Source: Heterodontus francisci | Lineage: Eukaryota | Direction of reading: 5' to 3' | Length of the DNA stretch: 64,000 nt | Assembly (NCBI RefSeq): GCF_036365525.1 | Contig: NW_027142041.1 | Location: 1,116,001 to 1,180,000, forward strand | Shown: in pieces, positions 2,525 to 55,282 of the stretch | Layout: each line of letters begins with the position of its first letter | Position numbering within the stretch: position 1 is the stretch's first letter | Translations under genes and position numbers: made by a program | The notes under the pieces: generated by a model | The model's input: the letters and a program-made list of their open reading frames with translations, nothing else | Told to the model about the DNA's origin: nothing | The model's database searches: none

Positions 2525-2573
2525 ATGGTGCAGAAACTGTTCCTGGCTGTGATCCTCTCTCTCTGTGTTGTGG
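2525..2573 (+). CDS. Exon 1, signal peptide [16 protein letters not shown](G)
   Basis: Kozak-like GAAATGG, basic residue followed by a hydrophobic core, and a phase-1 donor G|GTGAGT at 2574. This is a typical IgSF leader exon. TATAAA lies about 40 nt upstream. Confidence 0.8.
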
Positions 2574-8500: not shown

Positions 8501-11500
8501 GCATCTGCAGTATTTTGCTTTTATCTTGTAATTCAGCGATAGGAATGCTACCAACTGAACCACAGCATTCGCAATTATGCTGGTTCATCACTTTAAAGGA
8601 GTAGACAAACTGTTGCAGGATGTTTCCTTGACCTTGTTTGACCTAGTGCTGTCAGACTTTATGGGATGCAATTCCCTGGACCGCTGCTACCTGACTGTAC
8701 ACCCTGTGTCCACTGGTGGCTCTACACAATCAGGCTGTTTTAGACTCCATCAATAGTCAACTATTTAATGCAACCGGAATTTCTTGTGGGCCAGACAGTG
8801 AAGTGGTAATGGGTTCCCCTCCCTGAAAGGCACTGATGAAACAGTTGGGGTTTGATAATAGTCTTGGAATCTTTGATGACCATTTTCCCTGGTGTGGGCA
8901 GGCAGTGCCACATTTCCCCACCTCTCCTTCCCAAACTGAATCAGCCCTTGTTTGGGTGCCTGTCCCTGATCTTCCAATGATAAAATCTTCCCTTCTTCCT
9001 GTACCTTTGTCTGGTGCAGGAGGAGTGGATCCTGGCGAGTGTTTATCAACCTCACTGAATTTTGAAATACAGAAGATTTCATTAACCCGTCCTCTTAAGC
9101 TGCTGTCAGATGATCAGTTGTTTTCCATGGTTTATTTTATTTTTTAAATGTTTCAGGCATAACGGAGGCCTCAGCAATCATTCAGACTCCAGAACTGATC
9201 GACGTGAGAGAGGGAAGTTCAGTGCATTTACAATGTGCGATGGAGAATGGCAATGTGGGAAACACTGATGTAGAGTGGAAACTACTGCATGAAAATTCCA
9301 TAAATGACAAGGTTATCGGGGACCAAGGCAGCATTGGCCAATTCCAACCTTCCAGGGATTCCAAATACAACAGCTTCATTCTCACCATCAGAAACATACA
9401 GCAAAGTGACACTGGAACTTACTATTGTGAAATTATAGGAAAAAATAGATTCATCAAAGGAAAGGGAACCAAGATAGAAGTTAGAGGTAAATAGCTTTTA
9501 AATATAATTTGCCACATTCTCATCGACAAAGCTGGGAATCTGTTACATACACTGGAATATTCACACTGACTGCATTGGGAATCTGTTAGATAGCAATGGA
9601 ATATTCACTGTGAAAGTCAGTATTGAGGGAGCGCTGGAATGTCAGAGACGCAGTACTGAGGGAGTGCTGCACTGTCGGAGGGTCAGTACTGAGGGAGTGC
9701 TGCACTGCCTGAGGGTCAGTACTGAGGGAGTGCTGCACTGTCAGAGGGTCAGTACTGAGGGAGTGCTGCACTGTCGGAGGGTCAGTACTGAGGAAGCGCT
9801 GATCTGTCAGAGGGTCAGTACTGAGGGAGCGCTGCACTGTCGGAGGGTCAGTACTGAGGGAGTGCTGCACTGTCGGAGGGTCAGTACTGAGGAAGCGCTG
9901 ATCTGTCAGAGGGTCAGTACTGAGGGAGCGCTGCATTGTCAGAGGTTCAGTACTGAAGGAGTGCTGCACTGTCAGAGGGTCAGTACTGAGGGAACCCTGC
10001 ACTGTTGGAGGGTCAGTACTGAGGGAGTGCTGCACTGTCGGAGGGTCAGTATTGAGGGAGTGCTGCACTGTTGGAGGGTCAGTATTGAGGGAGTGCTGCA
10101 CAGTCGGAGGGTCAGTACTGATGGAGTGCTGCACTGTTGGAGGGTCAGTATTGAGGGAGTGCTGCACTGTCGGAGGGTCAGTATTGAGGGAGTGCTGCAC
10201 TGTCGGAGGGTCAGTACTGAGGAAGCGCTGATCTGTCAGAGGGTCAGTACTGAGGGAGTGCTGCACTGTCGGAGGGTCAGTACTGAGGAAGCGCTGATCT
10301 GTCAGAGGGTCAGTACTGAGGGAGCGCTGCATTGTCAGAGGTTCAGTACTGAAGGAGTGCTGCACTGTCAGAGGGTCAGTACTGAGGGAACCCTGCACTG
10401 TTGGAGGGTCAGTACTGAGGGAGTGCTGCACTGTCGGAGGGTCAGTATTGAGGGAGTGCTGCACTGTTGGAGGGTCAGTATTGAGGGAGTGCTGCACAGT
10501 CGGAGGGTCAGTACTGATGGAGTGCTGCACTGTTGGAGGGTCAGTATTGAGGGAGTGCTGCACTGTCGGAGGGTCAGTATTGAGGGAGTGCTGCACTGTC
10601 GGAGGGTCAGTACTGAGGAAGCGCTGATCTGTCAGAGGGTCAGTACTGAGGGAGTGCTGCACTGTCGGAGGGTAAGTACTGAGGGAGCGCTGCACTGTCA
10701 GAGGGTCAGTACTGAAGGAGTGCTGCACTGTCAGAGGGTCAGTACTGATCAAGTCGGCATAAGGAGGGAGGAAGTGTTGGGTATTCTAAAGGGCATTAAG
10801 GTGGACAAGTCCCCAGGTCCGGATGGGATCTATCCCAGGTTACTGAGGGAAGTGAGAGGGAAAATAGCTGGGGCCTTAACAGATATCTTTGCAGCATCCT
10901 TAAACACGGGTGAGGTCCCGGAGGACTGGAGAATTGCTAATGTTGTCCCCTTGTTTAAGAAGGGTAGCAGGGATAATCCAGGTAATTATAGACCGGTGAG
11001 CCTGACGTCAGTGGTAGGGAAGCTGCTGGAGAAGATACTGAGGGATGGGATCTATTCCCATTTGGAAGAAAATGGGCTTATCAGTGATAGGCAACATGGT
11101 TTTGTGCAGGGAAGGTCATGTCTTACCAACTTAATAGAATTCTTTGAGGAAGTGACAAAGTTGATTGATGAGGGAAGGGCTGTAGATGTCATATACATGG
11201 ACTTCAGTAAGGCGTTTGATAAGGTTCCCCATGGTAGGCTGATGGAGAAAGTGAAGTCGCATGGGGTTCAGGGTGTACTAGCTAGATGGATAAAGAACTG
11301 GCTGGGCAACAGGAGACAGAGAGTAGCAGTGGCAGGGAGTTTCTCAAAATGGAGACGTGTGACCAGTGGTGTTCCACAGGGATCCGTGCTGGGACCACTG
11401 TTGTTTGTGATATACATAAATGATTTGGAGGAAAGTATAGGTGGTCTGATTAGCAAGTTTGCAGACGACACTAAGATTGGTGGAGTAGCAGATAGTGAAT

Positions 11501-14500: not shown

Positions 14501-17500
14501 CGGCTTGACGGGTAGATGCTGAGAGGATGTTTCCCCTCGTGGGGGAATCTAGGACTATGAGGCACAGTTTCAGAATAAGGGGTCTTCATTTACGACAGAA
14601 ATGAGGAGGAATTTCTTCTCTGAGGGTGGTTAATCTTTGGAATTCTCTTCCCCAGTGAGCAGTGGAGGCTGGGTCATTGAGTACATTCAAGGCTGAGTTA
14701 GACAGAGTTTTCATCTGCAAGGGAGTCAAGAGTTATGTGGGGTCAGGCAGGAAAGTGGTGTTGAGGCTGCAATCAGATCAGCTGTGATTTTATTAAATGG
14801 CTCAATGGGCCGAATGTCCTATTCCTGCTCCTAATTCTTATGTTTTATGTTTTCAAAATACAATAAATTGATTTTTTCACAGAGTCATATGAAGATGATG
14901 ATTGATGTTCTGTTCCCCTGTTCCACTCTATCGCTCCCTTTCTCTCTGTCCACTTATTGAACACAAAAAACAATAAGTTTCTGATCAGGCTATTCTGCTT
15001 GTTCTGTCTCACACTCACACACTGGCCAGACATTTATGGTCCCCCCTGAAGCCGGGTGAGAGGCGGGGGGCACAGAGAATCGTGACGGGTAGCAGGGGAC
15101 AGACAGCCTGTTGCCAAGCCATCTTCCCGAGGACGGGATAGGCTGACAATGGCCTTCCTGCCCTGAGGCCAATTGAGGCCCTTAAGTGGCCTATTAACAG
15201 CCAATTTAAGGCCTCTTCCCGCCACCGCTAGATCTTGCCAGAGAGGATCTCTTGTAACATGAGGCACACTCCTTGCGGGCTTGGGGGTGGTGGTGGTGTC
15301 TCTCCTGCATGGGCAATCTGGAGCACCCCCGCTGGGAACCACTTCAACCCCCAGGATCCCCTCCCCCCGGACTGCACAACTGCCTCTTCGCCCCCTCACT
15401 AGGGCCTTCCAGACTGGTCCTGGTGATCCCACCTCATTTACCTGAGGTCCGGGTTCCACCACTGGGCCTGGGTCCGAGGCCTCTGCAGTCCCATCAATGG
15501 CCACTGCTCCCGATGGCGTTGCTGACACGACTAAACTGCTGGCCCTCTGATTGGCTGGCAGCTCGGAGCAGAATGGACAGGATTCCCGGCTTGTGAAACT
15601 TTTATTTAAAAAGACTGGAGGATCGCTCCAAGGATGGGGGTTGTGGGGGGGCGGGGGGGGGGGGCGCGAAAAGGCAGAAGCGGGGTTACCCCTGCCTTTT
15701 CAGCTCGGCACCGGGGTCCCCACCTCCAGCACACAATCCAGCAGGTTCACAGTCAGCCTCTCGGAAACATCCCAGTATCTGTTTCCACTAAATAAAGGTT
15801 TTGAAATTGGACAGTTTGATATTTTTCAAACTGTTTCAAACATCAACCACACAGGAAGTGTATAAAGCTGAACTGACATATTTCAACATCTGGATTGGAT
15901 GTTGCCTCTTTACTTTCTGACTTAGTTTCGGGGCCTTCTTGCTTTGCTGCCTGGCCCTCTCAGCACCGTCCATTGGTGGCTCTACATCAGGTGCAGACTC
16001 AGGCCCAGCTTTTAACGGAAGCCTGAATATCCTGGGGCAATATCAAAGAGCAGGGGCTCTGTAGCACCAGGAGCATTCTTCATAGGGCAAGTATAAGATT
16101 GGAACTGAGCTAGCTAGGGGCAGTCCCAGCCGCTGTACCCCCTACCCCCACCCCTTACCATTACCGCCATCAACCCCCCCCACCCCCACCCCCAGAAAGG
16201 ATATTTTGGATTTAGAGGGGACACAGTGCAGATTCACCAGAACGATAGCAGGTTTGTATTCCCTTGCATTTAGAAGGTTGAGGGGGATCTAGTAGAGGTG
16301 TTTACAATGGTGAAAGGATTCAATGGAATAGATACAGAGAACCTATTTCCTCTGGTGGGAGGTTCCAGAACAATGGGGCACAATGTTAAAATAGAGCCCG
16401 GCTGCTCAGGGTTTAAATTAGGAAGCACCTCTTCACACAAAGGAAAAGGCAAGTGTGAAATTCTCCTCTCCCTGAAATCTCTGAATGATTGGGGTCAATT
16501 GAAATTTTCAAGTCTCTCGCCATTTAGAAAATATTCTGATTTTATTGGCTGCATTGCACCACGTTCTGTGTGTTCTGTTGCCCCACATTCAGTGGGCTCT
16601 GTTGCTCCACATTCTGTGGGTTCTGTTGCTCCACATTCTGTGGGTTCTGTTGCTCCACATTCTGTGGGTTCTGTTGCCCCACATTCTGCGGGCTCTGTTG
16701 CTCCACATTCTGTGGGTTCTGTTGCCCCACATTCAGTGTGTTCTGTTGCCCCACATTCTGTGGGTTCTGTTGCCCCACATTCTGCGGGCTCTGTTGCTCC
16801 ACATTCAGTGGGCTCTGTTGCTCCACATTCTGTGGGTTCTGTTGCTCCACATTCTGTGTGTTCTGTTGCTCCACATTCTGTGGGTTCTGTTGCTCCACAT
16901 TCTGTGGGCTCTGTTGCTCCACATTCTGTGGGTTCTGTTGCCCCACATTCTGCGGGCTCTGTTGCTCCACATTCTGTGGGTTCTGTTGCCCCACATTCAG
17001 TGTGTTCTGTTGCCCCACATTCTGTGGGTTCTGTTGCCCCACATTCTGCGGGCTCTGTTGCTCCACATTCTGTGGGTTCTGTTGCCCCACATTCAGTGTG
17101 TTCTGTTGCCCCACATTCTGCGGGCTCTGTTGCTCCACATTCAGTGGGCTCTGTTGCCCCACATTCTGTGGGTTCTGTTGCCCCACATTCAGTGGGCTCT
17201 GTTGCCCCACATTCTGCGGGTTCTGTTGCCCCACATTCAGCGGGCTCTGTTGCCCCACATTCTGCGGGCTCTGTTGCCCCACATTCAGTGGGCTCTGTTG
17301 CCCCACATTCTGCGGGCTCTGTTGCCCCATATTCTGTGGGTTCTGTTGCCCCACATTCTGCGGGCTCTGTTGCCCCACATTCTGCAGGCTCTGTTGCCCC
17401 ACATTCAGTGGGCTCTGTTGCCCCACATTCTGCGGGCTCTGTTGCTCCACATTCTGTGTGTTCTGTTGCTCCACATTCTGTGGGTTCTGTTGCTCCACAT

Positions 17501-20500
17501 TCTGTGGGTTCTGTTGCTCCACATTCTGTGTGTTCTGTTGCTCCACATTCTGTGGGTTCTGTTGCTCCACATTCTGCGGGTTCTGTTGCCCCACATTCTG
17601 CGGGCTCTGTTGCTCCACATTCTGTGGGTTCTGTTGCTCCACATTCTGTGGGTTCTGTTGCCCCACATTCAGTGGGCTCTGTTGCCCCACATTCAGTGGG
17701 CTCTGTTGCCCCACATTCTGTGGGTTCTGTTGTCCCACATTCAGTGGGCTCTGTTGCCCCACATTCTGCGGGTTCTGTTGCCCCACATTCAGTGGGCTCT
17801 GTTGCCCCACATTCTGCGGGCTCTGTTGCCCCACATTCAGTGGGCTCTGTTGCCCCACATTCTGCGGGCTCTGTTGCCCCACATTCTGCGGGTTCTGTTG
17901 CCCCACATTCTGCGGGCTCTGTTGCCCCACATTCTGCAGGCTCTGTTGCCCCACATTCAGTGGGCTCTGTTGCCCCACATTCTGCGGGTTCTGTTGCCCC
18001 ACATTCAGTGGGCTCTGTTGCCCCACATTCTGCGGGTTCTGTTGCCCCACATTCAGTAGGCTCTGTTGCCCCACATTCTGCGGGCTCTGTTGCCCCACAT
18101 TCAGTGGGCTCTGTTGCCCCACATTCTGTGGGTTCTGTTGCCCCACATTCAGTAGGCTCTGTTGCCCCACATTCTGCGGGCTCTGTTGCCCCACATTAAG
18201 TGGGCTCTGTTGCCCCACATTCAGTGGGCTCTGTTGCCCCACATTCTGCGGGCTCTGTTGATTGCAGGCCTGCAGTTATTTGCAATAAATTTCATCTGCA
18301 ATTGTTCTGCCCACTTAAATATTTCGTCAATCTCTTTCTGTTGTTTCTGGGCTGTCTTCTCCAATTCCACTCTCACTCCTCATTTACTGTAATCTGAAGT
18401 GTAATGACTTTTCACTGGGTTTCTGATTAACATGAATTGGAAGCAATGGGTTGTCCAAGCACTAATTCCTGGAGCGCCCCACTCAGTCTTCACTCCCATC
18501 CCCACCGCACAACATTTTCCTAATAAGGAACTAATACAAAATAAAAATACTGCAGATGCTGGAAATCTGAAATTAAAACAGAAAATGCTGGAAATACTCA
18601 GCAGGTCTGGCAGCATCTGTGGAGAGAGAAGCAGAGTTAATTTCATATTGATATCCAAGTTGACCTTTGAACCCCAACAGTGTAACTAGTAGCATTTTGT
18701 GTGAAACGTTGTCTGATGCCTTTTGGAAATGTAATTACCCTCCATCATGGGCTTATTACAGTCCACTTGGGATAACACTTCCTCAAAGAAATCGAGGAGG
18801 TTGATCACACAAGACCATCCCCTTCTGAACCCGTGTTGTTTGTGTTTCCTGTAATTACTGTGTAACCAATATTCTAGTTGAAATCCTGAGCATCAATTCT
18901 TTTATTTTAGGCAGTAGTGTGGTGAGCTGAACCAATGCACTGGGTCAGCATTCCAGACTATTCTCTTAATTCAATACAAACCCATGTTGCCCTGATCATC
19001 TCTTTAAACACTCAGGATATGCTGAAACTGATACTGAATTCTTGATTTTTTTCCCTTAAAGGTGACAGTTTTCCCATTCTGTCTCAGCCGGAAGTGCAGA
19101 ATATCAGTGAGGGCCACACTGCCCAGTTGCAATGCTCTGTCAATAATATCGATTTGAAAAATACCGACTTACACTGGTACCGACGCAGTCTGAGAGGATT
19201 TCAGCGGTTTATAACACACCGCGCTAAGGATATTGTGGAAATGGATGAAAATTTAAGAAACCATTTTCAATCTACCAGAGATGTCTCCAAGAATGAAGTC
19301 ATTCTAACAATCTCAAACATTCTGCTCGAAGATGCAACTGTCTATTACTGTACGGTATGGTCAGACGTGTATGGGAGTGGAACCCAGCTGAATGTAATCA
19401 GTAAGTACATTTTCAAAGTTTGTTCTCAGGATTTGCTGACATGGCCTCATTTATTACCCATCCCTTGTTGTCTTGAGCAGCCGTTGTTGGGCTTTCTCCT
19501 TGAAACAGTGCAGTCCTTGTGCTGAGGATGCCTGCACAATGGACTTGGGTAGGGATTTCAAAATCTCTGCCTCAGTGATGAGAAGGTTCCACACAGGAGA
19601 TTAGTAAACAAAATTAGAGCACATGGGATTGGGGGTAATATACAGGTATGGATTGAGAATTGGTTAATAGACAGAAAGCAGAGAGTAGGAATAAACAGGT
19701 CATTCTCAGGATGGCAGTCTGTGACTAGTGGGGTACCGCAAGGATCAGTGCCGGGTCACAATCTATATCAATGATTTGGATGTGGTGACCAATTGTAATA
19801 TTTCCAACTTTGCTGATGACACAAAACTAGGTGGGAATGTAAGTTGTGAGGAGGATGCAAGGAAGCTTCAAGGGGATTTAGACAGGCTAAGTGAATAGGC
19901 AAAAACATGGCAGCTGGAATATAATTTGAATGAGTGTGAAGTGATCCACTTTGGTAGAAAAAAACAGAAAGGCAGAGTATTTCTTAAATGGTGAGAGATT
20001 GGGAAGTGTTGAGGTCCAAAAGTGTCCTTGTTCATGAGTCACTAAAAGCTGGTATGCAGGTGCAACAAGCAATTAGGAAGGCAAATGGGATGTTGGCCTT
20101 CATTTCAAGGGGATTTGAGTACAGATTTGAAGTCTTGCTGCAATTGTATAGAGCCTTGGTGAGACCGCACCTGGAGTATTGTGTACAGTTTTGATCTCCT
20201 TATCTCAGGAAGGGTATACTTGCCATAGAGAGAGAGTGCAACAGAGGTTCACCAGACTAATCCCTGGAATGGTGGGATTGTTTTATGAGGAGAGATTGAG
20301 GAAACTGGGCCTGTATCCTCTAGAGTTTCGAAGAATGAAAGGTGATCTCATTGAAACTTACAAAATTCTTACAGGGTGTAACAGGGTAGATGTTGTTTCA
20401 GATGTGTATAGGATGTTTCCTCTGGCTGGTGAGTCTAGAACCAGGGGACACAGCCTCAGAATGAGGGGGAGGACATTTAAGAGTGAGATGAGGAGGAATT

Positions 20501-29500: not shown

Positions 29501-32500
29501 CCTGATTTTCTACTATTATTTGGATGCTTTTTGCGTCTTCTACTGTGAAGACAGATCGAAAATATTTGTTCAAAGTCTCTGTCTTTTCCTTGTTATCTCT
29601 TATTAATTTCCCAGTCTCATCTTCTAAGGGACCAACATTTATTTTAGCTACTCTGTTCCTTTTTACATATTTGTAGAAGCCCCTTCAGTCTGTTTTTATA
29701 TTTCTTGCTAGTTTACTCTCATTGTCTAATTGCTCCATTTTTTTTAGTCCTCCTTTGCTAGTTTCTAAAGTTTTCCCAATCTTCTGACCTACCACTAATC
29801 TTTGCAGCATTGTACACCTTTTCTTTCGCTTTGATACTATCCTTAATTTATTAGTTAGCCACGGATGGTTCACCCTTCTCGTAGTCGTTCCTTCTCAATG
29901 GAATATATCTTTGTTGAGGGTTATAAAATATCTCCTTAAATGTCTGTCACTACTTATTCACCCTCTTCCCTTTTAACCTATTTCCATCCACATTAGCCAA
30001 CTCTGTCTTTATACCTTTGTAATTGCCTTTATTGAAGTTTAAGACACTAGTTTCAGACCCAAATTTCTCACCCTCAAACTGGGAATACTGAAGAGACCAG
30101 AATTGGTGGAATACTGAAAGGCTGGAGGAAATCACAGAGATTGAGAGGGATGAAGCCATGGAGAGATTTGAAAACAAAGATGAGAATTTTAATATTGAGG
30201 TTTTGCTTAATCAGGAGCCCATTATGTCAGTGAGTGGAGGAAAGATGGGCAAGTGTTAGGACATGGGCAACTGAGTTTTGAATGACTTCAAATTTGCAAA
30301 GGGTAGAACTAGGAAGATCAGCCTAGTGGTGGAATAGACAAGTGTAGAGGTAACAAAGGCATGAATGTGCCTTTCAGCAGCAGATGGGCTGAGACAGGAG
30401 AAGAGTCAGTGTTGTTATGAAAGTGGAAATAAGCGGTCTTAGAGTGAATATTTGGTTGAAAGCTAATTTCACTGCCTACAAGGGGAGAGGATGAATGATG
30501 GATGGGCACTTGAGAGAAATAAACTTACAGGGCATTGGGGATAGGGCTGGGGAATGGGACTGATTGGATAGCTCTGCAGAGAGCTGGCATGGACTCGATG
30601 GGCCGAAAGGCCTCTTTCTGTGCTGTTATGCTTAGCAATAACCTGCTCAATGATGCTCAGTTCCGCCAGGGCCACTCAGCTCCTGACCTCATTACAGCCT
30701 TGGTTCAAACATGGACAAAAGAGCTGAACTCAAGAGGTGAGGTGAGAGTGACTGCCCTTGACATCAAGGCAGCATTTGACTGAGTATGGTATCAAGGAGC
30801 CCCAGCAAAACTGAAGTCAATGGGAATCAGGGGGAAAACACTCCACTGGCTGGAATCATACCGAGCGCAAAGGAAGATGGTTGTGGTTGTTGGAGGTCAA
30901 TCATCTGAGCTCCAGGACATCACTGCAGGAGTTCCTCAGAGTAGTGTCCTAGGCCCAACCATCTTCAGCTGCTTCATCAATGACCTTCCTTCAATCATAA
31001 GGTCAGAAGTGGGGATGTTCGCTGATGATTGCACAATGTTCAGCACCATTCATGACTCCTCAGATACTGAAGCAGTTCATGTAGAAATGCAGCAAGACCT
31101 GGACAATATCCAGGCTTGGGCTGATAATTGGCAAGTAACATTTGCGCCACACAATTGCCAGGCAATGACCATCTCCAACAAGAGAGAATCTCACCATCTC
31201 CCCTTGACAATCAATGGCATTACCATCGCTGAATCCCCCACTATCAACATCCTAGGGGCTACCATTGACCAGAAACTGAACTGGAGTAACCATATAAATA
31301 CCGTGGCTACAAGAGCAGGTCAGAGGCTATGAATCCTGAGGTTTGTAACTCACCTCCTGACTCCCCAAAGCCTGTCCACCATCTACAAGGCACAAGTCAG
31401 GAGTGTGATGGAATACTCTCCATTTGCCTGGATGGGTGCAGCTCCAACAACACTCAAGAAGCTCGACACCATCCAGGACAAAGCAGCCCACTTGATTGGC
31501 ACCCCATCTACAAACATTCACTCCCTCCACCACCGACGTACAGTGGCAGCAGTGTGTACCATCTCCAAGATGTACTGCAGCAACACACCAAGGCTCCTTA
31601 GACAGCACCTTCCAAACCCATGACCTCTACCAACTAGAAGGACAAGGGCAGCAAATACATGGGAACACCACCACCTGCAAGTTCCCCTCCAAGTCACACA
31701 CCATCCTGTCTTGGAACTATATCACCGTTCCTTCACTGTTGCTGGGTCAAAATCCTGGAACTCCCTTCCTAACAGCACTGTGGGTGTACCTATATCCCAT
31801 GGACTGCAGCGGTTCAAGAAGGCAGCTCACCACTACTTGCTCAAGGGCAATTAGGGATGGGCAATAAATGCTAGTCTAGCCAGCGACGCCCACATCCCAG
31901 GAATGAATTTAAAAAAAAGTTTAGTTGGAGGAAATTTCTGCTGCTCTAGTGCTGATGTCAAATAAGCAGTCTGACAGTTTATGAAACAGTGGAGGGGTTG
32001 AGAGAGAGTTGGTGGTGAGGTTAGCATACGTGTGACACTGTGATTTTGGATGTCGTTGAGGGGCAGCATGTAGAGGAGAAATAGGAGGTAACAACCAGGA
32101 CTCCAAGTCACAGCTGCTCGAAAGGTCATCTATCCCTCTGTGAATTGAATAGCACTTGCCTATTTTCCTCTTTTATTTTGCTACTCTGGCAAACCACTTC
32201 GAGTCATTTATAGAATCATTGAGTCCATGCTTCACAGTGAAGATTTCCTCTCTGTTAAATCCCTGACCTTTGCTACCTTGACTGAACCCCTCAACACATG
32301 CAAAATTTTGCTTCTTTTGGACCAGATTTTAAATTATTGATATTTTTCTCTTCGTGGTGCAGTTGTCCCAGTTCTTATCCAGTCTCCGATCCTGGAACGT
32401 GTCACAGAGGGTCACACAGTGCGGTTACAGTGCACCATGTGGAACGCCGCAGTGAGAGACACTGATGTTCACTGGTACCGGGAGCTACCAGGACAAAATA

Positions 32501-35500
32501 TGGAGTGGATTTTAACACATGATATAATGAACAGCACACGACGGAGCCCAGGTTTCACTGACCGTTTCCAGTCTTCCAGAGACACCTCCAATAACAGCTT
32601 CATTTTGACAATCAAACATGTGCAGCCCAATGACACTGCCGTCTATTACTGTAAAGTGTGGGGAGATATCAGTGGGAATGGAACCCAGATCATTGTAACC
32701 AGTAAGTCCAGTTTACGTTATGTTCACTGATTTATAATAGAAATATTAAATCTGTATTCACTCCACATTTCAGAGTGGAGTTGGGAAAATGAGATGGTGG
32801 ATTTGTGTGTTTAGATTGATGATAATTCATGTCAACACAATATTAAGCACTGCAGTCTCTGAGAGATCATAAAGTATATTCAAGGACCATCAACAATCAG
32901 AATGAATGACTGCACTCTAGAATGTCTGCTGGAATGAATGGGACTGTTTGTCCCCTGGGTGAATGATATACTATGTCCCTGGGGAGAATGTGGCTTTATG
33001 TCTCCTTCTAATGATTGCAGACCATTACATTAATTACAGTGTGTATCTGTTCTAATGCTGCATGTCTGTTACTGAATTGTGTTCACCCTGCTGATATTTT
33101 ACAGAAGCCTGGACTCCAGATCTGTTTCCAATTATTCTGGGCTCTCTGCTGGGTTTCCTGCTGCTCCTGGTCATTACTGTAATCATTTTGCTTTATGTGA
33201 AACAATGGTTGTGTTGCACAAACACATCAACACAGAACAGGTAAATATAATTTATTCCATTCACAGGTGCTGTTGAGAAGTCATCTGGATGTTCTGTTGT
33301 TAATTGAACTCAGTAAATTCTATAACTCTGAGCTTATTTACATCTTTACTTTTGTCCCTTCCTTCCCTTTCTCTCTCATGATCTCTGACCTCCTCTCTCC
33401 ATCTCTCTCCATTTATCAGATTCTCTTTCTCGCTTTCTCTGCTCCTGGTGAATTGGGCAATGCCCTGATAAACACTGATGTCTTTTTTTATCTCATTCTA
33501 TTTCTGTTTCTCTGGTCCTGGTATAATGTGGAGATGGGAATGCAGCGTGTGGGGGGCAGTAACAGGTGACGATCCGGGAACATGGAAAGATGAGGATACC
33601 TGATCGATATTAATGGGCAGGCCTAATTTGAATATTGTTTCTGGATTCAATGTCTTCTCTGTAAGTAAGAAGCATGACACTGACCCTCATGATGCAATTT
33701 CTGGGGCTTCAAGGCCCAGTGAAACACTGAAATGGAGGAAGAGGTTTGGAGCTTACCACATAGAGGAAAGAAGAAGGGGAAGTGTCAGGTGGCTGTGAAA
33801 AGACGGAAGATGCCTTGCCACCACCCGCTCCCCCCACCCACCACTCTCGTTTCACAGATGCTTCCTTGATGTTCTGCTGGGTGGTCTAAGGACCAGGGCG
33901 TACCTGATATTTACCAATGGCAGAAAGAGGAAACCAGCTGCCATGACTCAGAAGGAGTGAGTAGAGATGGCAGAGGAGGTGATTGGAGATGGCAGAAGGT
34001 GTGAGTAGAGATGGCAGAAGGTGTGAGTAGAGATGGCAGAAGGAGTGAGTAGAGATAGCAGAAGGAGTGTGTAGAGATGGCAGAAGGAGTGTGTAGAGAT
34101 GGCAGAAGCAGTGTGTAGAGATGGCAGAAGCAGTGTGTAGAGATGGCAGAAGCAGTGTGTAGAGATGGCAGAGGGAGTGAGTAGAGATGGCAGAGGGAGT
34201 GAGTAGAGATGGCAGAGGGAGTGAGTAGAGATGGCAGAGGGAGTGAGTAGAAATGGCAGAAGGAGTGAGTAGAGATGGCAGAAGGAGTGAGTAGAGATGG
34301 CAGAGGGAGTGAGTAGAGATGGCAGAGGGAGTGAGTAGAGATGGCAGAAGGAGTGAGTCGAGATGGCAGAGGGAGTGAGTCGAGATGGCAGAGGGAGTGA
34401 GTAGAGATGGCAGAAGGAGTGAGTGGAGATGGCAGAAGGAGTGAGTGGAGATGGCAGAAGGTGTGAGTGGAGATGGCAGAAGGTGTGAGTGGAGATGGCA
34501 GAAGGAGTGAGTAGAGATGGCAGAGGGAGTGAGTAGAGATGGCAGAGGGAGTGAGTAGAGATGGCAGAAGGTGTGAGTAGAGATGGCAGAAGGTGTGAGT
34601 AGAGATGGCAGAAGGAGTGAGTAGAGATGGCAGAGGGAGTGAGTAGAGATGGCAGAGGGAGTGAGTAGAGATGGCAGAGGGAGTGAGTGGAGATGGCAGA
34701 AGGAGTGAGTGGAGATGGCAGAAGGAGTGAGTGGAGATGGCAGAAGGAGTGAGTAGAGATGGCAGAAGGAGTGAGTAGAGATGGCAGAAGGATTGAGTAG
34801 AGATGGCAGAAGGGGTGAATAGAGATGGCAGAGGGAGTGAGTAGAGATGGCAGAAGGAGTGAGTGGAGATGGCAGAAGGAGTGAGTGGAGATGGCAGAAG
34901 GAGTGAGTAGAGATGGCAGAAGGAGTGAGTAGAGATGGCAGAAGGATTGAGTAGAGATGGCAGAAGGAGTGAGTAGAGATGGCAGAGGGAGTGAGTAGAG
35001 ATGGCAGAAGGAGTGAGTAGAGATGGCAGGTGTGAGTAGAGATGGCAGAAGGAGTGAGTAGAGATGGCAGAAGGAGTGAGTAGAGATGGCAGAGGGAGTG
35101 AGTAGAGATGGCAGAAGGAGTGAGTAGAGATGGCAGAGGGAGTGAGTAGAGATGGCAGAAGGAGTGAGTAGAGATGGCAGTTCTCACACTTCTCAGGATT
35201 AAATTCCATTTTCCACTGCTCCGTCCATCTTACCAGCTCATCTATATCGTCCTGTTATCTAAGGCTTTCCTCCTCACTATTTACAACACCACCAATTTTC
35301 GTGTCATCTGCAAACTTACTGATCATACCTCCTATATTCACGTCTAAATCATTAATATACACTACAAACAGCAAGGTTCCCAGCACCGATCCCTGTGGTA
35401 CACCACTGGTCACAGACTTCCACTCGCATAAACAACCCTCGACCATCACCCTCTGCCTCCTGTCACTAAGCCAATTTTGGATCCAATTTGCCCTGGATCC

Positions 35501-41500: not shown

Positions 41501-44500
41501 TCTCTGCCCGTTCTCATTCATCCTTCCAACGCCATAGCGCCCAAGGCAGGAGGGCCATGAGTCATGGTCGGCCCCAACCCTGGCATTAAAGTCCCCCAGC
41601 AGGAATAGGTGTTCGGTGTTGGGGATGCTGCTAATGATGTTATGGAGTTGTTCATAGAACTGGTCTTTAGCTTCAGGTGCGGAGCAGAGTGTTGGAGCAT
41701 AGATGCTGAGTAGGTGTACTGGACCAGAGGTGGTGAGCAGTCGGATGGACAGTATGCGTTCCGAGCCATTTGAGGGAGGCTCTATCATGCTGAGCAAGGA
41801 GTTTCTGATGGCGAAGCCCACTCCATGCTGTCTTGGTTCTTCAGGATCCCTGCCCTGCCAGAAGAAGGTGTAGTCTTGCTCTGCTAGAGAGCCACTCGCG
41901 GGGAGGCGAGTCTCCTGAAGTGCTGCAATGTCCACATTGAATCTACTGAGCTCGTTGTTAATGATGGCGGTCTTCCGAGAATCGTTGATTTGTGTAAGGT
42001 CTTCCGACAGGCCAGGACACATAGTTCTGACGTTCCAGCTTGCAAAGCGAAGGGCTGGTACCTTCTTTCCTTTTTTCATGTTGTTTGGTGCGGTGTATCA
42101 GTCCACCTTTCGGGCAATGACCCTGAGCTCCAAGCACCCATTGAAGCAGGCAGACTGTGGCGGGACAGAACCTTATTGACCGGGGGCTGCCCGGTTTGAG
42201 GCGGGCGGTAGCTGTCCAGTGAGGTGCAATGACCTCTCCCACCGACAAAGGCAACCCGTGGCGCCCAGTTTCTACGCCAATTTATCTGGACTTATAACCC
42301 GTAACTGCTGCCTTCCGTGTTGTTTTAGTCGCTGTGAGGCAACTATGGAGTGACCTCTCCACGGCGCATGCCTGGGCAAATTTATGGAGGTTGAGAGTTG
42401 CCCAGTCGTCAAAACCCCCCTCTCGGCCTTTCTGGTGGGGTCCAAAGGAGTGCAGGACACGACGTTTGGCACCAGTATGGCTGCAGGAACTGCCGGAAAC
42501 ATGCCAAAGGTGACACATGACCGCCTACGGGGTTCCGCTCCGGATTTTCTGTTAGGGTTTACTCCCTTAGCCTTGGTCTCTCCCGAGACGCCCACAAGGC
42601 AGTGGGGTTGTTGGGGCCCCTACACAGGTGTAGGATGGTGCCGGTGGGAGGAGGGGATGCAAGGGGGAGGGGTAGAGGGAGGGGGTGGGGGGGGGGGGTG
42701 CAGGGGAAGGGGGTGCGGGGTGAAGATGGTGCGAGGGGGGGGCGGGCTGGGACGGGGTTGTGAGGGGGTGAGCTGAGAGGGTGGAGCAGGGAAGGGGACG
42801 GGGGTGGGGGGGGGGTGGAAGGGGGGTAAAGGGGGGGGGGAGGGGGGGTAGAATCTGGTGCAGGTAATAAGCCATTTCCTCAGTGCCCACCATCGACGTC
42901 CGGAAAGCTCATCCACGTCCTTCGGGAGGTGAAGCATCATTTGGCAGACTTAGAGGTGATTACATTTGCTAAGGGTTTTTTTTTTGCAGTGGTTTAAATA
43001 AAGGCATGCAGCATTGCCGACAGTGCGCTGCAGATGCTCTCAGAGCCATCTCCCGCGGGCGCTTTGAAGTTGCGGCCGGGGGGGCCGTTCGTGGATGTTT
43101 TGGGTGTTCGGGGCACCTTTTCACAGGACTTCTCTCGGGTCCCGCAGCTCCTTCTTCACCTCAATGGATTACGGATTGGTTAACAGGCAGAAAGCAGAGA
43201 GTAAGAATAAACTGGTCATTCTCGCGTTGGCAGACTGTGACTAGTGGGGTACCGCAGGGATCAGTGCTTGGGCCCGAGCTGTTCACAATATATATCAATG
43301 ATTTGGATGTGGGGACCAAATGTAGTATTTCCAAGTTCGCAGATGACAAACTAGGTGGGAATGTGTGCTGTGAGGAAGATGCAAAGCGGCTTCAAGGGGA
43401 TTTGTACAGACTTAGTGAGTGGGCAAGAACGTGGCAGATGGAATATAATGTGGGAAAATATGAGGTTATCCACATTGCTAGGAAGAATAGATGTGCAGAG
43501 TATTTCTTAAATGGTGAGATTAGAAAGTGTAGATGCACAAAGGGACTTGGGTGTCCTCGTCAATAAATCACTGAAAGTTAGCCTGCAGGTGCAGCAAGCA
43601 ATTAGGAAGGCTAATGTTAGGTTAGCCTTTATTGCAAGAGGATTTGAGTACAGGAGTAGTGAAGTCTTGCTTCAATTGTATAGAACCTTGGTTAGACCGC
43701 ACCTGGAGTACCGTGTGCAGTTTTGGTCTCCTTACCTTAGGAAGGATATTATTGCCATAGAGGGAGTGCCATGAAGATTCACCAGACTTGTTTCCGGGAT
43801 GGTGGGACTGTCCTATGAAGAGAGATTGTGGAAACTGGGCCTGTATTCTCTAGATTTTCGAAGAATGAGAGGTGATCTCATTGAAACCTACAAAATACTT
43901 CAATGGATAGACAGGGTAGATGCAGCTAAGATGTTTCCCCTGGTTGGGGAGTCTCGAACCAGGGGACACAATTTCAAAATAAGGGGGAAGCCACTTAGGA
44001 CAGAGATGAGGAAATATTTCTTCACTCAGAGCTTTGTGAATCTTTGGAATTCTCTACCCCAGAGGGCTGTGGAAGCTCAGTCATTGAGTATGTTTAAAGT
44101 AGAGATTGACAGATTTCTAAATATCAATGATATAAAGGGATTTGATGATAGTGTGGGAAAAGGCATTGAAGTGGATGATCAGCCATGATCATATTGAATG
44201 GTGGGGCAGACTCGATGGGCTGAATGGCCTACTCCTGCTCCGATGTCTATGTTCCTATGTTCCTATGCTCTGTGATGAATTAATCTTAGGTATATCTGAT
44301 GTAACATTGTTTAGAGTCACAGATGAAGACACTGGCAACGTGTATGCAACAGTAAATGGTAAGCAAACTAACTCAATACTTACTGTAGGAGGAATAGTCT
44401 GAACTCCAGTGACCTGTTAGTGATTGCAAGCTTCATGTACTGTTAATTTAACATGTACTCAGTTCCATCATGTAGACAAATGCAGGAAAGTTTCACAATG

Positions 44501-46696
44501 GACTTAACATGTAAAGTGTGTAATGTTATTTAATTCTGACATATTGCTGGGAACTGGGAGGTATTTAAGCCATAGAGTCATAGTCATTATGGCACAGAAG
44601 ACCATTTGGCCCATCACGTTCATACCAGCAGAACTATCCAGCCAATCTCATTACCCTGCTCTACCTCCGTAGCCCTGCAAGTTTATTTCCTTCAAGTACC
44701 TATACAATTTCCTTTTGAAATAATTGATTGTCTCCACTTCCACCATCCTCGTGGGTGGTGAGTTCCAGGTCATTACCATTCGCTGCATAAAAAGGTTCTT
44801 CCCCACATCCCCCCCTGCAACTCTTTCCCAAAACCTTCAATCTATATCCTCTAGTCCTCATATGATCAGTTAATGGGAACAGTTTTTCCTTGTCTCACGT
44901 ATCTAAGCCTGTCATAATCTTGTACGCCTGAATCTAATCTCCTCTTAATCTTCTTTGCTCCAAGGAGAACAACCTCAGCTTCTGCAACCTAACCTTGTAA
45001 CTAAAACCCCCCATCCCTGGACCCACTCTGGCAAATCTCCTCCGCACGCTGTCAAGGACGCTGTTCTCTCTAGGCTTGCTCTTGCTCTCACTCTCATATG
45101 TGATGCAGCACTGACCTTCCTGCTCCCCAACCTGTGTCTTTCACTCATCACATCTGGAACTGTCCCCATGGGATGAGAGACACAGCTGGATTAAATTCCA
45201 TTCTTGTTCCAGTGAACTCTCCCTACTTATTAAAGAATTAAGCATTTCTGCCATGCTCTTTTCTGTCATCATCCCAAACAGGGACCAGAAATCGATTGGG
45301 AAATGAGTCTTTTGAGGCATTGCTTCAGCAGGTTTTCATAACTTCAATGGTTCTTTTTACAAACTGCCCCTCAGTGTTCAGAGATCCAGCCCACATTGAT
45401 CTGTATCTGCAGACATTAGGTGTCATTTTAACACCCAGATGGGAACATGACAAAGTGAGCCATGTACTTGCCTGGGAGGGGCAGTGGTCAGTGGGGTAGT
45501 GGTTGCTGGGGCAGTGCACATTTGGGGCAGTGGTCATTTGGGGCAGTGGGCACTGGGGGTAGAGGGCACTGGGGGCAGTGGTCACTGGGGGCAGTGGTCA
45601 CTGGGGGGGGGGGGGTTGGCTGGGAAGTCAGTAGGCAGCAGCTGTTTAGCTAGAGGCTGCCACCAGGAACCCACAGGAACACAAGGGATGGGTTCTGGGA
45701 GGGAATCCCAGTCCAGGAACCTGAGACTTACCTTGCTGGCCTCTTCCGCCCTTGGAAGCTGTTTCCAACAGGTTTGGCCCAGTAGTGAAGCTAAAACTGC
45801 TTCCCCACCTGGACCTCATGTACCAAAGGCACCATCGGAGACACATCGGCATTTTCAATGCGCATCCTTATGCCTGCAGCTCAAAAATTACACTCGGCCA
45901 GACTGGGGTAAGTCTGTACTCTAACTGACCCCACCCAGTGGTCTCTGCCAGGTAATGGGAGTTAAAATAGACCCCGCGGTATTTGCCTTCCAATGGTGTC
46001 TAAAGAGCTTCATCCTCAGAGATGTGAATCTGAAGGGACATTGGATTATCTTTCAGATCAAAATCTGACCAACAATCAACCAGTACCAGCTGCTTCTGCC
46101 GCTGTGGTAAGTGAATGGATCAGGATACAGTCCATTATCAATGCATAAAATGATATAATTAATATAATAATAAATGATTTCTATCAATTTATCAGTAATA
46201 TCGTAGCAATGGTAATGGCTTTGTAGAAAAAATCACTACATTGGTATATTTTGTAATATATAATATTCATCCAGTTAGATTAATCTTTTAGTTACAGTGA
46301 TCAATTACTCATAGTAATAATTAACATGAAGATACAAAGTGATCATTCACTTACGTTAATAATTCAGTAACAGATCATTCACTTACAGTAATCATTCTAT
46401 TACAGTAATTAACTTGAAGTGAGCCATCATTTCCAGTGAGTGTTCATTTAATGTAATTATCTGAAGTGTTAATTCACTTAAGGTGAAGTTCACTTACAGT
46501 AATAACTCATTAAAAGTGATTATTTGCATACTTTCCAAATCAAATGTAACAGTGAAATTCCATATCTGATATTTTGTTCCAGTCAGATGACGATCAAATC
46601 CATTATGCTGAACTTCAACTGGGACGAGGCACGAACTGTCCACCAGTGACTCTTACTGAAACGATCACTGAATATGCTGCAGTGAAACACACATAA
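2525..46696 (+). CDS. Spliced 8-exon gene: type I membrane IgSF receptor with three VJ-type Ig domains, TM and ITIM+ITSM tail (466 aa)
   Basis: Manually spliced exons of 49+330+339+339+136+44+50+114 = 1401 nt, open from ATG 2525 to TAA 46694-46696. All junctions are GT..AG, with intron phases 1,1,1,1,2,1,0 compatible. Domain order is leader-V-V-V-TM-cytoplasmic tyrosine motifs. Confidence 0.85.
2668..5511 (+). mobile_element. LINE family A, near full length, with tRNA-like head and internal RT deletion at about 4700
   Basis: A box 2678-2688 and B box 2734-2744. APE-endonuclease motifs (ILTESYL, GDFN) and RT fragments ([13 protein letters not shown]) with stops and frameshifts. A-rich tail. 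Inserted in a CR1 at DEG|NAVDVVY. Confidence 0.88.
5512..8015 (+). mobile_element. CR1 (HER1-like) LINE, RT to 3' end, interrupted by a second CR1 at about 6104-7346
   Basis: [19 protein letters not shown] and KFTDDTK motifs. The host frame GFIN|[10 protein letters not shown] is split at 6103/7347 by a 5'-truncated CR1 with its own 3' tail. Confidence 0.88.
8030..8567 (-). mobile_element. Deu-domain tRNA-derived SINE (SacSINE1/AmnSINE1-like), interrupted by a Penelope-derived insert
   Basis: The minus strand reads gctgtggttcagttggtagc (A box) ... ggttcaaatccc (B box) ... cagtactgagggagtgctgc ... ggatgtaaaagatctcatggcactattt ... ttggccaatatttatccctcaa. Family name is from recalled consensus. 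Confidence 0.75.
8347..8524 (+). mobile_element. Penelope-derived short palindromic insert with 12-bp TSD
   Basis: CTTGTAATTCAG is duplicated at 8335-8346 and 8525-8536. Inverted arms aagaaatgctggaaatactcagc / gctgagtatttccagcgtttctt match the 3' end of the Penelope at 13640-13745. Confidence 0.8.
9157..9486 (+). CDS. Exon 2, Ig V domain 1 (VJ-type, shortened C'/C'' region)
   Basis: Acceptor tttcag|GC after a T-rich tract. Translates (G)[68 protein letters not shown]. Donor G|GTAAAT. Canonical Cys, Trp, DxxxYYC and GxGT are present. Confidence 0.92.
9617..10748. repeat. 33-bp minisatellite (GTCAGTACTGAGGGAGTGCTGCACTGTCGGAGG)n, about 34 units, with a 396-bp higher-order duplication
   Basis: Directly visible. 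The diagnostic variant gaggttcag recurs at 9942 and 10338 (12 units apart). Confidence 0.97.
10749..11912 (+). mobile_element. 5'-truncated CR1 LINE (RT region)
   Basis: [36 protein letters not shown] and KFADDTK motifs. Frameshift at about 11500, CR1-type 3' tail. Confidence 0.92.
11958..11993 (+). ncRNA. Minimal type I hammerhead ribozyme motif (Penelope-associated type)
   Basis: TTGTC-CTGATGA-gtgcaaggt-GAAA-AGCT-TC-GACAA: 5-bp stem I, conserved core, palindromic AAGCTT stem III. Stem II is weak. Confidence 0.6.
12021..14850 (+). mobile_element. Degraded CR1 LINE hosting a Penelope insertion
   Basis: CR1 RT fragments on both sides of 12339-13745, and a CR1 3' tail at about 14800-14850. 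Confidence 0.8.
12339..13745 (+). mobile_element. Penelope-like element, 5'-truncated (RT C-terminus, GIY-YIG endonuclease, terminal repeat)
   Basis: ORFs [14 protein letters not shown] and [37 protein letters not shown]. 12-bp TSD TCAGGTAGAGTC at 12327-12338 and 13746-13757. Hammerhead-like core at 13649-13673. Confidence 0.92.
16548..18260. repeat. 24-bp minisatellite (TCTGTTGCYCCACATTCWGYGGGY)n, about 70 units
   Basis: Directly visible. Many units contain the inverted pair CCCACA-ttc-TGTGGG. Confidence 0.98.
18538..18640 (-). mobile_element. Penelope terminal-repeat fragment
   Basis: Reverse complement of the 3' ends seen at 8420-8524 and 54820-54925. Confidence 0.75.
19062..19400 (+). 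CDS. Exon 3, Ig V domain 2 (VJ-type)
   Basis: Acceptor ttttttcccttaaag|GT. Translates (G)[65 protein letters not shown]. Donor A|GTAAGT. Confidence 0.92.
19583..20735 (+). mobile_element. 5'-truncated CR1 LINE
   Basis: [20 protein letters not shown] and [16 protein letters not shown] motifs, with 3' tail gggctgaatggcctactcctgctcc. Confidence 0.88.
21095..21960 (-). mobile_element. CR1 LINE 3' fragment
   Basis: Reverse-complement CR1 3' tail (gccattcagcccctcaagcc) and RT C-terminal fragments. Confidence 0.8.
21965..23642 (+). mobile_element. 5'-truncated CR1 (HER1-like) LINE
   Basis: ORFs 21924..23075 and 23168..23551 carry RT motifs. 3' end atgggccggatggcctcttctgcactgt with a (gattctgt)n tail. 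Confidence 0.92.
24024..27910 (-). mobile_element. LINE family A, near full length with tRNA-like head, containing an RTE-derived insert
   Basis: Endonuclease ORF 26786..27553 (ILTESYL, GDFN, LDLVLTN, SDH) and RT fragments ([26 protein letters not shown]). Head at about 27810-27905, poly-T tail at 24024. Confidence 0.92.
26063..26690 (+). mobile_element. Bipartite non-autonomous RTE derivative (5'UTR fused to 3' end)
   Basis: 26063-26550 is nearly identical to the reverse complement of about 42208-42700. 26551-26690 matches the reverse complement of about 38845-38980, ending in a (AAG)n tail. Confidence 0.92.
28845..30075 (-). mobile_element. CR1 LINE internal fragment
   Basis: ORFs 28705..29103, 29225..29437 and 29685..29873 contain CR1 ORF2 peptides. 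Confidence 0.85.
30629..31918 (+). mobile_element. 5'-truncated LINE family A
   Basis: [19 protein letters not shown] and MFADDCT motifs, with the same 3' tail gcgacgcccacatccc..gaatgaatttaaaaaaaa. Confidence 0.9.
32363..32701 (+). CDS. Exon 4, Ig V domain 3 (VJ-type)
   Basis: Acceptor ttctcttcgtggtgcag|TT. Translates (I)[93 protein letters not shown]. Donor A|GTAAGT. Confidence 0.93.
33105..33240 (+). CDS. Exon 5, short stalk plus transmembrane helix plus juxtamembrane segment
   Basis: Acceptor tattttacag|AA. Translates (K)[44 protein letters not shown](R). The hydrophobic stretch is uncharged. Donor AG|GTAAAT (phase 2). This frame is not in the ORF track. Confidence 0.9.
33948..35180. repeat. 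22-bp purine-rich minisatellite (GAGTGAGTAGAGATGGCAGAAG)n, about 56 units
   Basis: Directly visible, in intron 5. Confidence 0.98.
35181..36060 (-). mobile_element. CR1 RT fragment (35181-35530) followed by a diverged family-A-like LINE fragment
   Basis: ORF 35255..35503 (PQGSVLG, KFADDTK) and ORF 35653..35997 ([19 protein letters not shown]). Confidence 0.75.
37546..38446. mobile_element. Probable solo LTR (about 900 bp)
   Basis: Termini TGTTACG...CATAACA are inverted TG..CA ends. Non-coding, and it cleanly interrupts the CR1 frame. The TSD is imperfect. Confidence 0.7.
38844..43163 (-). mobile_element. Full-length RTE-clade LINE with 7-bp TSD
   Basis: ATGGATT is duplicated at 38837-38843 and 43164-43170. 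Single long ORF and about 1.08 kb of 5' leader. Confidence 0.93.
38894..42079 (-). CDS. RTE ORF, APE endonuclease plus reverse transcriptase plus C-terminal CCHH knuckle, 1061 aa, uninterrupted
   Basis: SWNVRT, LQETR, GDFNA, TDH (EN); [35 protein letters not shown] (RT); [17 protein letters not shown]. Confidence 0.95.
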   Translation of the reverse strand: MKKGKKVPALRFASWNVRTMCPGLSEDLTQINDSRKTAIINNELSRFNVDIAALQETRLPASGSLAEQDYTFFWQGRDPEEPRQHGVGFAIRNSLLSMIEPPSNGSERILSIRLLTTSGPVHLLSIYAPTLCSAPEAKDQFYEQLHNIISSIPNTEHLFLLGDFNARVGADHDSWPSCLGRYGVGRMNENGQRLLELCTYHNLCITNSFFHTKPCHQVSWRHPRSRRWHQLDLIVTRRAALNSVQITRSFHSADCDTDHSLVCSKVRLRPKKLHHSKQKGHPRINTSRISHPQLLQKFLNSLVTALQNTPTGDAETKWAHIRDAIYESALTTYGKSAKRNADWFQSHNEELEPVIAAKRIALLNYKKAPSDLTSAALKAARSTAQRTARRCANDYWQHLCSHIQLASDTGNIRGMYDGMKRALGPTIKKITPLKSKSGDIITDQRKQMDRWVEHYLELYSRENAVTETALNAAQPLPVMDELDIQPTKSELSDAIDSLASGKAPGKDSITPEIIKSAKPAILSALHELLCLCWDEGAVPQDMRDANIITLYKNKGDRGDCNNYRGISLLSIVGKVFARVALNMLQKLAERVYPEAQCGFRAERSTIDMLFSLRQIQEKCREQQMPLYIALIDLTKAFDLVSRRGLFRLLEKIGCPPKLLSIITSFHDNMKGTIQHGGSSSEPFPILSGVKQGCVLAPTLFGIFFSLLLSHAFKSSKEGIFLHTRSGGRLFNLARLRAKSKVRKVLIRELLFADDAALTSHTEECLQSLIDRFASACNEFGLTISLKKTNIMGQDVRNAPSINIGDHALEVVQEFTYLGSTITSNLSLDAEINKRMGKASTAMSRLAKRVWENGALTRNTKVRVYQACVLSTLLYGSEAWTTYASQERRLNSFHLRCLRRILGIRWQDYISNTEVLEAANTPSLYTLLSRLRWLGHVSRMEDGRIPKDTLYSELATGIRPTGRPCLRYKDVCKRDMKSCDIDHKSWESVASIRQSWRAAIKTGLNCGESKRLSSWQEKRQRRKGRANCATAPTNKFLCSTCGRACHSRIGLYSHSRRCFTNH
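44315..44358 (+). CDS. Exon 6, cytoplasmic (R)[14 protein letters not shown]
   Basis: Acceptor ttgtttag|A matches phase 2 from exon 5. Donor G|GTAAGC. Acidic residues precede a YxxV motif. The exon lies in non-repeat sequence just after a CR1 tail, and its polypyrimidine tract is weak. Confidence 0.7.
46057..46106 (+). CDS. Exon 7, cytoplasmic linker (D)[16 protein letters not shown]
   Basis: Acceptor ttatctttcag|AT (phase 1) and donor GTG|GTAAGT (phase 0). It bridges the phases of exons 6 and 8 exactly. Confidence 0.75.
46583..46696 (+). CDS. Exon 8, terminal coding exon with ITIM and ITSM
   Basis: Acceptor attttgttccag|TCA. Translates [47 protein letters not shown] at 46598-46615, ITSM TEYAAV at 46667-46684. 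Confidence 0.88.
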   Translation, partial: SDDDQIHYAELQLGRGTNCPPVTLTETITEYAAVKHT

Positions 46697-46782
46697 CCAC
46701 CTGAATATTTCTGTTAGCATTGCCAGAGGGAAGGGACTCCCTGAAACGTTTCATTCTCTAGTCCTTAGCAACATTAGAATGG

Positions 46783-48028: not shown

Positions 48029-48519
48029 TTAACAAATCCAAGGCTGTCACTATCCTAGTCCAGGTGGCCTTTACTCTGCACTAGCTCCAGTGGTACAGAC
48101 AGCCCGTGACTCCTCTTCTCTTGTTTCTCCCTTTGTCATCTTCAGACCTGTGCACCAAGCCTCTCCAGGTCTGTCCTTTTATTCTTTGTAGCTGGTGACT
48201 CCTCCTATGCACTGATTGGTTGGTTCATACATATCACTGTTTTGATTGGTCCTGCCATTTCATTTGTCAGTGCTTCTGTTTGTACATTAATCACAATCAC
48301 ATGCGCAAAGCTATGTGTACAAACAGTCCATTATAACCTGAGGTCCATTAGGTTACACATTTCCAGCAAGACTTTTGTTACATTTTGATCATAACTTGTT
48401 ACATAGTTTTCAAAATGTGTTCTTTTCCTTGTGATTACCAAAGTGATCACAAAGTGATTCTGGATAACTCAAACTTTATGGGCAGCATTTGTTTCCAGTA
48501 AGATACACAGCTAAACAAA

Positions 48520-54925: not shown

Positions 54926-55282
54926 TAATAGTTTTTATCAATATGTTACAGGGAAACAGGAATCCAGTAAAGAGAGATGTATCTGTTACTCATTGCAAAG
55001 GGACTTAGACAGGCTAGGTTCCAATTTATCCTTTAACAAATAGCGCATCAGGTGTGTAGAATGTAACACACGTGTTTAAAACACATTTAGGATTGGTGTG
55101 CTGTACTGAGAGGGCGGAGTCTCCCACTGCCACCAGAAGTATTCTCATTCCTTCCTCTGTTCATACCGCACAAACCGTGTGTCGTAAGGAGAAAACGGAA
55201 GGTGTTCAGTAAATTAGCCGTGATCCATCCAGGGAGTGAGGCAACAGCACAAAACAGGGCGAGGCCTCCCACCTGGTTGAAA

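Follow-up and report, generated by a model that had tools for sequence, protein, structure and literature searches.

How a V domain of a shark cell-surface receptor came to be short in a VNAR-like way is the question raised by this locus. The window, that is, the whole 64,000-nucleotide stretch of horn shark (Heterodontus francisci) DNA that was analysed, holds the exon of a membrane-distal domain, V1, which the initial annotation had described as lacking the C'/C'' region and as convergent with or related to VNAR. The likeness was found to be real and, as judged from the sequence comparisons below, most likely arose by convergence through repeated deletions rather than by shared descent. On balance, we favour the reading that V1 sits at the tip of a shark membrane receptor whose gene is intact, spliced and does not rearrange and whose tail is predicted to be inhibitory. 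V1 lost 9 residues in what is likely one of several independent deletions, which are predicted to lead to a VNAR/I-set layout.

V1 is encoded by a single phase-1 exon with AG/GT ends and is assigned to the V-set by Pfam (53.6 bits). A recount agreed with the earlier values of 63, 71 and 72 residues between the canonical cysteines of V1, V2 and V3, and the Trp-to-Cys distances were 49, 57 and 58, respectively. Because Cys-to-Trp is 13 in all three domains, the whole V1 loss falls between the Trp and the FQ..RD strand, where it had been placed. A domain survey of 102 family proteins gave 282 parsed domains, 259 of them unique (12 V1-type and 247 others). The 247 others have a Trp-to-Cys distance of 54-70 (58 in 177 of them), and none shows a Trp-to-Cys below 54 or a Cys-Cys below 70, which puts V1 far outside the family range. 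A Cys-Cys of 63 by itself is no mark of VNAR, since a distance of 64 is found in kappa-type V segments of the horn shark. Nor is the shortening a sequencing error, because a second genomic copy on contig C439 is identical and the contigs of four RNA-type runs agree; V1 matches these contigs without alternative letters, although contigs drop rare variants.

The count of residues ahead of GxG also agreed, with 10 in V1 (GKG) and 7 in V2 and V3. However, the long CDR3-like loop that had been read from it was not borne out: the 10 residues include no Cys, and the joined light chains examined have 10-12, which means that the shortening is in V2 and V3. Seven residues ahead of GxG are found in 238 of the 259 unique family domains, while the three extra residues are common to all 12 V1-type domains, 11 of which have lost GxG. 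V1 is without Tyr-x-Gln after the Trp and without Phe before GxG, residues with a role in V-V pairing. A Trp-to-Trp recombination was considered as the source of the EW in V1 and was dropped, as orthologues carry TW or QW at that place.

The gene itself is intact, with a 466-aa open frame running leader-V1-V2-V3-transmembrane (TM)-ITIM/ITSM tail and all introns GT-AG (Table 1). V1 is identical to part of P0001, a Heterodontus francisci protein in its source, and when P0001 was mapped to the window its leader, V1, V2, V3 and TM were all present. The public model skips the tail exons at 44315-46696 and runs into about 330 unrelated, coiled-coil-like residues, and the ITIM/ITSM tail was thus hidden. 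Those last 330 or so residues were not found in the window or in the 60 kb of flank searched. The three tail exons were located by means of orthologue tails. The leader-V1-V2 joint and the TM-tail 1-tail 2-tail 3 joints are present in contigs of three of the four RNA-type runs; all four come from one animal and one study, none is recorded as RNA, the tissue is unrecorded, and their reading as RNA rests on the spliced contigs. The C439 copy is identical in all 8 coding exons (for the c1 exon, in a comparison that left off one base); it may represent a second haplotype or a duplication made in assembly. The gene is complete on both C439 and C1995, two unplaced contigs, between which the flanks are 99-100% identical and the repeat-rich V1-V2 intron about 97%. 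In a search for RAG signals, the only heptamer-like word in 9000-9700 lay 120 nt into the intron.

Table 1. Exons of the horn shark receptor gene, with positions in the window
Feature	Position	Strand	Remarks
Leader (signal peptide) exon	2525..2573	+	Matches P0001 residues 1-17 exactly; spliced to V1 in 3/4 runs (contigs)
V1, membrane-distal pre-joined VJ-type domain, short between C and D strands	9157..9486	+	Cys-Cys 63, Trp-to-Cys 49; leader-V1-V2 spliced
V2, full-length VJ-type domain, Cys-Cys 71	19062..19400	+	Other sharks have the orthologous V2 in this gene; V2 clade 100/100
V3, full-length VJ-type domain, Cys-Cys 72	32363..32701	+	Likely imported from a C13-cluster paralogue
Transmembrane exon, membrane span without charged residue	33105..33240	+	3' end is the loose end ahead of tail exon 1
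Tail exon 1, NVYATV tyrosine motif	44315..44358	+	GT..AG joint in 3/4 runs
Tail exon 2, spacer	46057..46106	+	Predicted first; both joints then found in contigs
Tail exon 3, ITIM IHYAEL, ITSM-type TEYAAV, stop codon	46583..46696	+	In frame; joints found in contigs

The 12 V1-type domains form a graded series of Trp-to-Cys lengths: 57 in epaulette and bamboo sharks (n = 4), 53 in whale and zebra sharks (n = 2), and 49 in the horn shark (n = 1), with the shortest distance, 40, shared by cloudy catshark and white shark (n = 5). Among them, the 63-residue Cys-Cys form was seen in the horn shark only. Seven representatives form a clade (99/97) with the order (horn shark,((catshark, white shark),(carpet sharks))), which agrees with shark phylogeny. 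The full-length orthologues keep the family ILTH motif, and hence the long state is ancestral; on the best V1-type tree at least three shortenings are required. The gaps differ by lineage (1, 5, 9 and 18 columns) and, in three alignments, differ from the 12-column gap of VNAR. Thus the deletions appear to be independent and to have occurred several times, and the 9 residues between the C and D strands of horn shark V1 were likely lost in one of them. Orthologue models read V1-V2-TM or V1-TM, V1 being the only domain common to all. The catshark has at least five copies, and their annotation reads junctional adhesion molecule C-like. P0069, P0070 and P0220-P0222 (catshark) and P0097 (white shark) have 11 residues from the Trp to the D strand, compared with 17 in VNAR.

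The fold was assessed on an alignment-based AlphaFold model of V1 (36 rows, mostly full-length domains; pLDDT 86); a single-sequence fold (pLDDT 60) was too weak and was set aside. In the model the C strand spans residues 37-43, a short C' 50-53 and D 62-67, with no C'', the weakest part being the C'-D region (pLDDT 74 and 67). The loss of normal C' and C'' strands proposed in the initial annotation is thus supported by the model and by the Trp-to-Cys distance of 49 against 46 in VNAR, and V1 is predicted to have the VNAR/I-set layout. In the description of VNAR given in PMC8470474, C' is very short and is linked directly to D, as in the I-set. Foldseek, which had been suggested as a check together with structure prediction, nevertheless placed lambda light chains at the top (TM 0.81-0.86), with VNARs appearing from rank 14 onwards (0.75-0.80). 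VIA-align gave a Z of about 17 for VL and VH (rmsd 1.4-1.8, 105 aligned) and, in a separate wide library, 15.5 for VNAR (rmsd 2.1, 102 aligned). PDB sequence searches with V1 returned generic antibody domains alone. The shortest orthologues resemble I-set domains of the NCAM and TYRO3 type, scoring above V-set: white shark V1 scored 38.2 bits for I-set against 26.4 for V-set. Of the 10 structural neighbours listed for white shark V1, 9 align to I-set or Ig_2 domains and the remaining one to V-set, and adhesion-type domains are its best sequence matches in the PDB. However, gene structure, motifs and the tree place the V1 orthologues among V-derived domains, so the I-set likeness is secondary.

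As for VNAR itself, pattern searches in the horn shark genome gave 6 VNAR-type matches on C34, of which 2 were parsed, with a Cys-Cys of 60 and a Trp-to-Cys of 46. A search of the 20 kb or so lying upstream of two TCR-delta-like V genes found no VNAR-type V; the VNAR genes were located by motif. V1 is close to VNAR in both distances and in the predicted short C' and missing C''. Unlike VNAR, V1 undergoes no V(D)J rearrangement, as one exon holds V and the J-like strand and is spliced to the leader and V2; its CDR3 is neither long nor Cys-stapled, and sequence similarity is low. What follows V1 is two V-set domains and a membrane span, not the C1 constant domains of IgNAR. By alignment, V1 would have lost residues of the CC' loop and C' and kept the old C'' residues, whereas VNAR kept the CC' loop: the 9-column gap covers the end of the CC' loop and C', and the 12-column VNAR gap lies further on, with placement uncertain in this poorly conserved stretch.

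Relatives of this tandem-V receptor were found in sharks, rays and a chimaera, and the horn shark paralogues lie in clusters at C13:120.27-120.44 Mb and on C650. Linkage of the family to the MHC was considered and found unsupported, as MHC class I lies on C29 and the family cluster on C13; the contig of the window is unplaced. In the tree the family is one group (93/91), and its neighbours are sigma-2 and a C34 gene with VJ on a single exon. Genome loci are named kappa, lambda, sigma, VH, TCR, NKp30 and VNAR by our own assignment, not by tool output. Of the rearranging V genes in the genome, the closest belong to light-chain miniclusters on C46, each with V, J and C and with signal sequences. 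The sigma-2 V sequences are 48-51% identical to V3 and 38-42% to V1. The C46 V segments share with V3 the 13/58 spacing, of which V1 keeps the first figure and has lost the second, and the motifs CAM(E/Q)NGNVG and F(Q/K)PSRD are shared as well. By count, the C46 genes have CDR1/CDR2 lengths of 8/7, and PMC5985310 gives lengths of 8 and 7 as characteristic of sigma-2 (sigma-cart, type I, NS5). The light-chain genes here have split V-J, signal sequences and a C exon, whereas in the receptor the VJ exons are fused and stand in tandem, a membrane span and a tyrosine tail follow, and there is no light-chain C domain. We infer that the family descends from a sigma-2-like light chain; because the root of the tree is insecure, this descent is put forward as an inference. 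Germline-rejoined Ig genes have been proposed as a possible source of new receptors (PMC2193156). UrIg, UrIg2 and NKp30, non-rearranging shark genes in which the leader exon is followed by a VJ domain encoded in one exon (PMC12227049), share that arrangement with the horn shark receptor, which differs from them in having no C1 domains, an inhibitory-type tail and a family cluster (C13) apart from MHC class I (C29).

Single-exon VJ genes were noted at other places in the genome. L043 (G000:C34:823.3-823.8 kb region) has 13/58 spacing, is on a contig with IgH and VNAR genes, and falls beside the family and sigma-2 when placed in the tree; it may be UrIg2 or another relic. L054 and L097 (G000:C46:14.89-14.97 Mb), with a Cys-Cys of 64 and a long branch, lie beside the sigma-2 clusters. 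At G000:C46:15.04-16.88 Mb, there are dozens of light-chain V-J-C miniclusters with about 17 kb spacing, split V and 12-base-spacer signals.

V1, V2 and V3 had been attributed to internal exon duplication; as one duplication within the lineage this did not hold, as a single clade of the three was rejected (p 8e-50). V3 is identical at 102 of 109 residues (94%) to domain 4 of P0009, a C13 paralogue; the DNA identity of about 90% reaches about 115 nt into the upstream intron, and V3 is absent from orthologue models. V3 was thus likely imported from the C13 cluster. The expectation that V1 would be the most variable domain held between shark orders, where identity to the horn shark is 37-51% for V1 and 50-66% for V2, and failed among close copies. 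Within carpet sharks the identities are 67-85% (V1) and 66-83% (V2); catshark copies differ by 0-6 residues in V1 and 3-9 in V2 (10 pairs), and bamboo shark copies by 5 and 17. Since close copies differ no more in V1 than in V2, nothing marks V1 as a diversifying binding site. The pattern fits remodelling in bursts followed by binding of a fixed ligand, not a VNAR-like hypervariability. In P0062 (epaulette shark) two identical V1 domains stand in tandem, a recent duplication or an assembly artefact.

The spliced cytoplasmic tail contains IHYAEL and TEYAAV in frame behind an uncharged membrane span, the two motifs being called by the ITIM and ITSM consensus definitions. In PMC11599192 the ITSM is given as TxYxxV/I. 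From these sequence features, the horn shark gene is most likely an inhibitory paired receptor. Siblings with a membrane Arg and a short tail, the usual form of an activating receptor, occur in other sharks (P0062, P0065-P0067 and P0070). Inhibitory- and activating-type siblings differ by 3 residues in V1 between P0069 and P0070 and by 5 between P0064 and P0062. A genome search of the horn shark found no activating-type V1 sibling. SIRP, CD300 and skate MDIR are likewise paired inhibitory/activating V-domain receptors. The NITRs of bony fish are described as paired ITIM/activating V-domain receptors (PMC2442602). The horn shark gene is like all four in being a type I membrane protein with a V-type tip and a member of a clustered multigene family, and the V1 family is like them in having ITIM inhibitory forms along with activating-type forms with a charged membrane residue. 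The receptor is unlike them in its ectodomain of light-chain-like VJ domains alone.

Several other histories could account for a short V1. That it shares ancestry with VNAR, as a captured IgNAR V exon or a VNAR precursor, would explain the similar Trp-to-Cys distance and layout, and the AU test rejected neither V1+VNAR (p 0.22) nor V1-type+VNAR (p 0.16), a weak test, because its one VNAR row sits on a very long branch. However, V1 scores only 76 in alignment with VNAR against 137-159 with sigma-2 V and 132-198 with its orthologues. The starred branch (99/96) of the 63-row tree parts all rearranging V domains, VNAR included, from the receptor family, full-length orthologues lie inside the V1 clade, and the VNAR gap is at a different place. 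This tree, with NKp30-like outgroups, was rooted inside the family by long branches (V1-type 71/99). From the second tree 23 rows were dropped (5 long-branch single-exon V genes and 18 redundant or long family or antigen-receptor rows), and the trees are without two TCR-beta rows and one V2 row. Common descent with VNAR is therefore very unlikely, and of the two relationships first offered, convergence is the more likely for length and layout; kinship is not supported, as V1 groups with its orthologues inside the family. Hardly any credence can be given to a decaying gene with the deletion as damage, despite the unplaced contig and a 63-residue form confined to the horn shark. The frame is open, splice sites and motifs are intact, contigs are spliced, and the second copy is identical. 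Some orthologues do lack the deletion, as a decaying copy would have it, but others in two other orders are kept with an even shorter V1.

A single old deletion common to horn shark, catshark and white shark and later extended, with the carpet-shark genes representing a hidden paralogue or a repair by gene conversion, is a more serious candidate. The V1 nearest to that of the horn shark is the catshark's (54-55%), the V2 tree weakly groups the two (90/55), the 9-column gap lies inside the 18-column gap, and the AU test for a single origin of the three short types gave p 0.0505, a borderline rejection. Against this, the best tree sets the horn shark apart from catshark and white shark (97/90), and whale and zebra sharks would still need a deletion of their own; we regard it as improbable. 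Relaxed constraint alone, with V1 a structural cap or spacer and the ligand bound by V2 or V3, would suit the free variation of deletion size across lineages and the greater divergence of V2 among close copies, inhibitory- versus activating-type siblings included. It sits poorly with the conservation of V1 in carpet sharks, equal to or above that of V2, with a 40-residue form of the same length in two orders, and with the white shark model (one annotation), in which V1 is the only V domain; it is rather unlikely.

Under the preferred reading of independent deletions in a working receptor, the joining of V1, V2 and V3 in one chain would have removed the need for light-chain-like pairing of V1, and its C'/C'' edge would then have become dispensable. 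V1 at the tip would act as a single domain, its ligand being a cell-surface molecule that is fairly fixed. In established ITIM receptors the phosphorylated tail recruits SHP-1/2. Here, Src-family kinases would phosphorylate the ITIM/ITSM tyrosines, SHP-1/2 would be recruited and the cell would be dampened, while the activating partners in other sharks may be sister genes with a near-identical V1 and a membrane arginine.

The graded loss across V1 orthologues is the new element, and a search of the open literature found no description of the receptor family or of the V1 length series. Provided that the predicted folds are right, simple deletions can bring a V domain to the VNAR/I-set layout, several times, once it is unpaired. 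It is a tentative idea, one we hold to be possible though doubtful, that one orthologous domain from a re-fused light-chain exon records the stepwise passage from V-set through VNAR-like to I-set (57, 53, 49, 40), selected as a compact single-domain binder. The I-set-like fold of VNAR has been used to suggest an origin from cell-surface or adhesion molecules (PMC4622739, PMC8470474). If the stepwise passage is true, the VNAR fold would be one that unpaired V domains can arrive at repeatedly, and it would not be evidence of adhesion-molecule descent. The four natural V1 lengths amount to small natural single-domain scaffolds that can be tested side by side. The horn shark gene also corrects the wrong public model P0001 and adds an intact inhibitory-type member to the shark receptor family.

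The introns are filled by long minisatellite arrays and many LINE-type fragments (9600-10750, 16500-18270, 33900-35250, 46760-48080 and 55200-64000), which yield long meaningless open frames.
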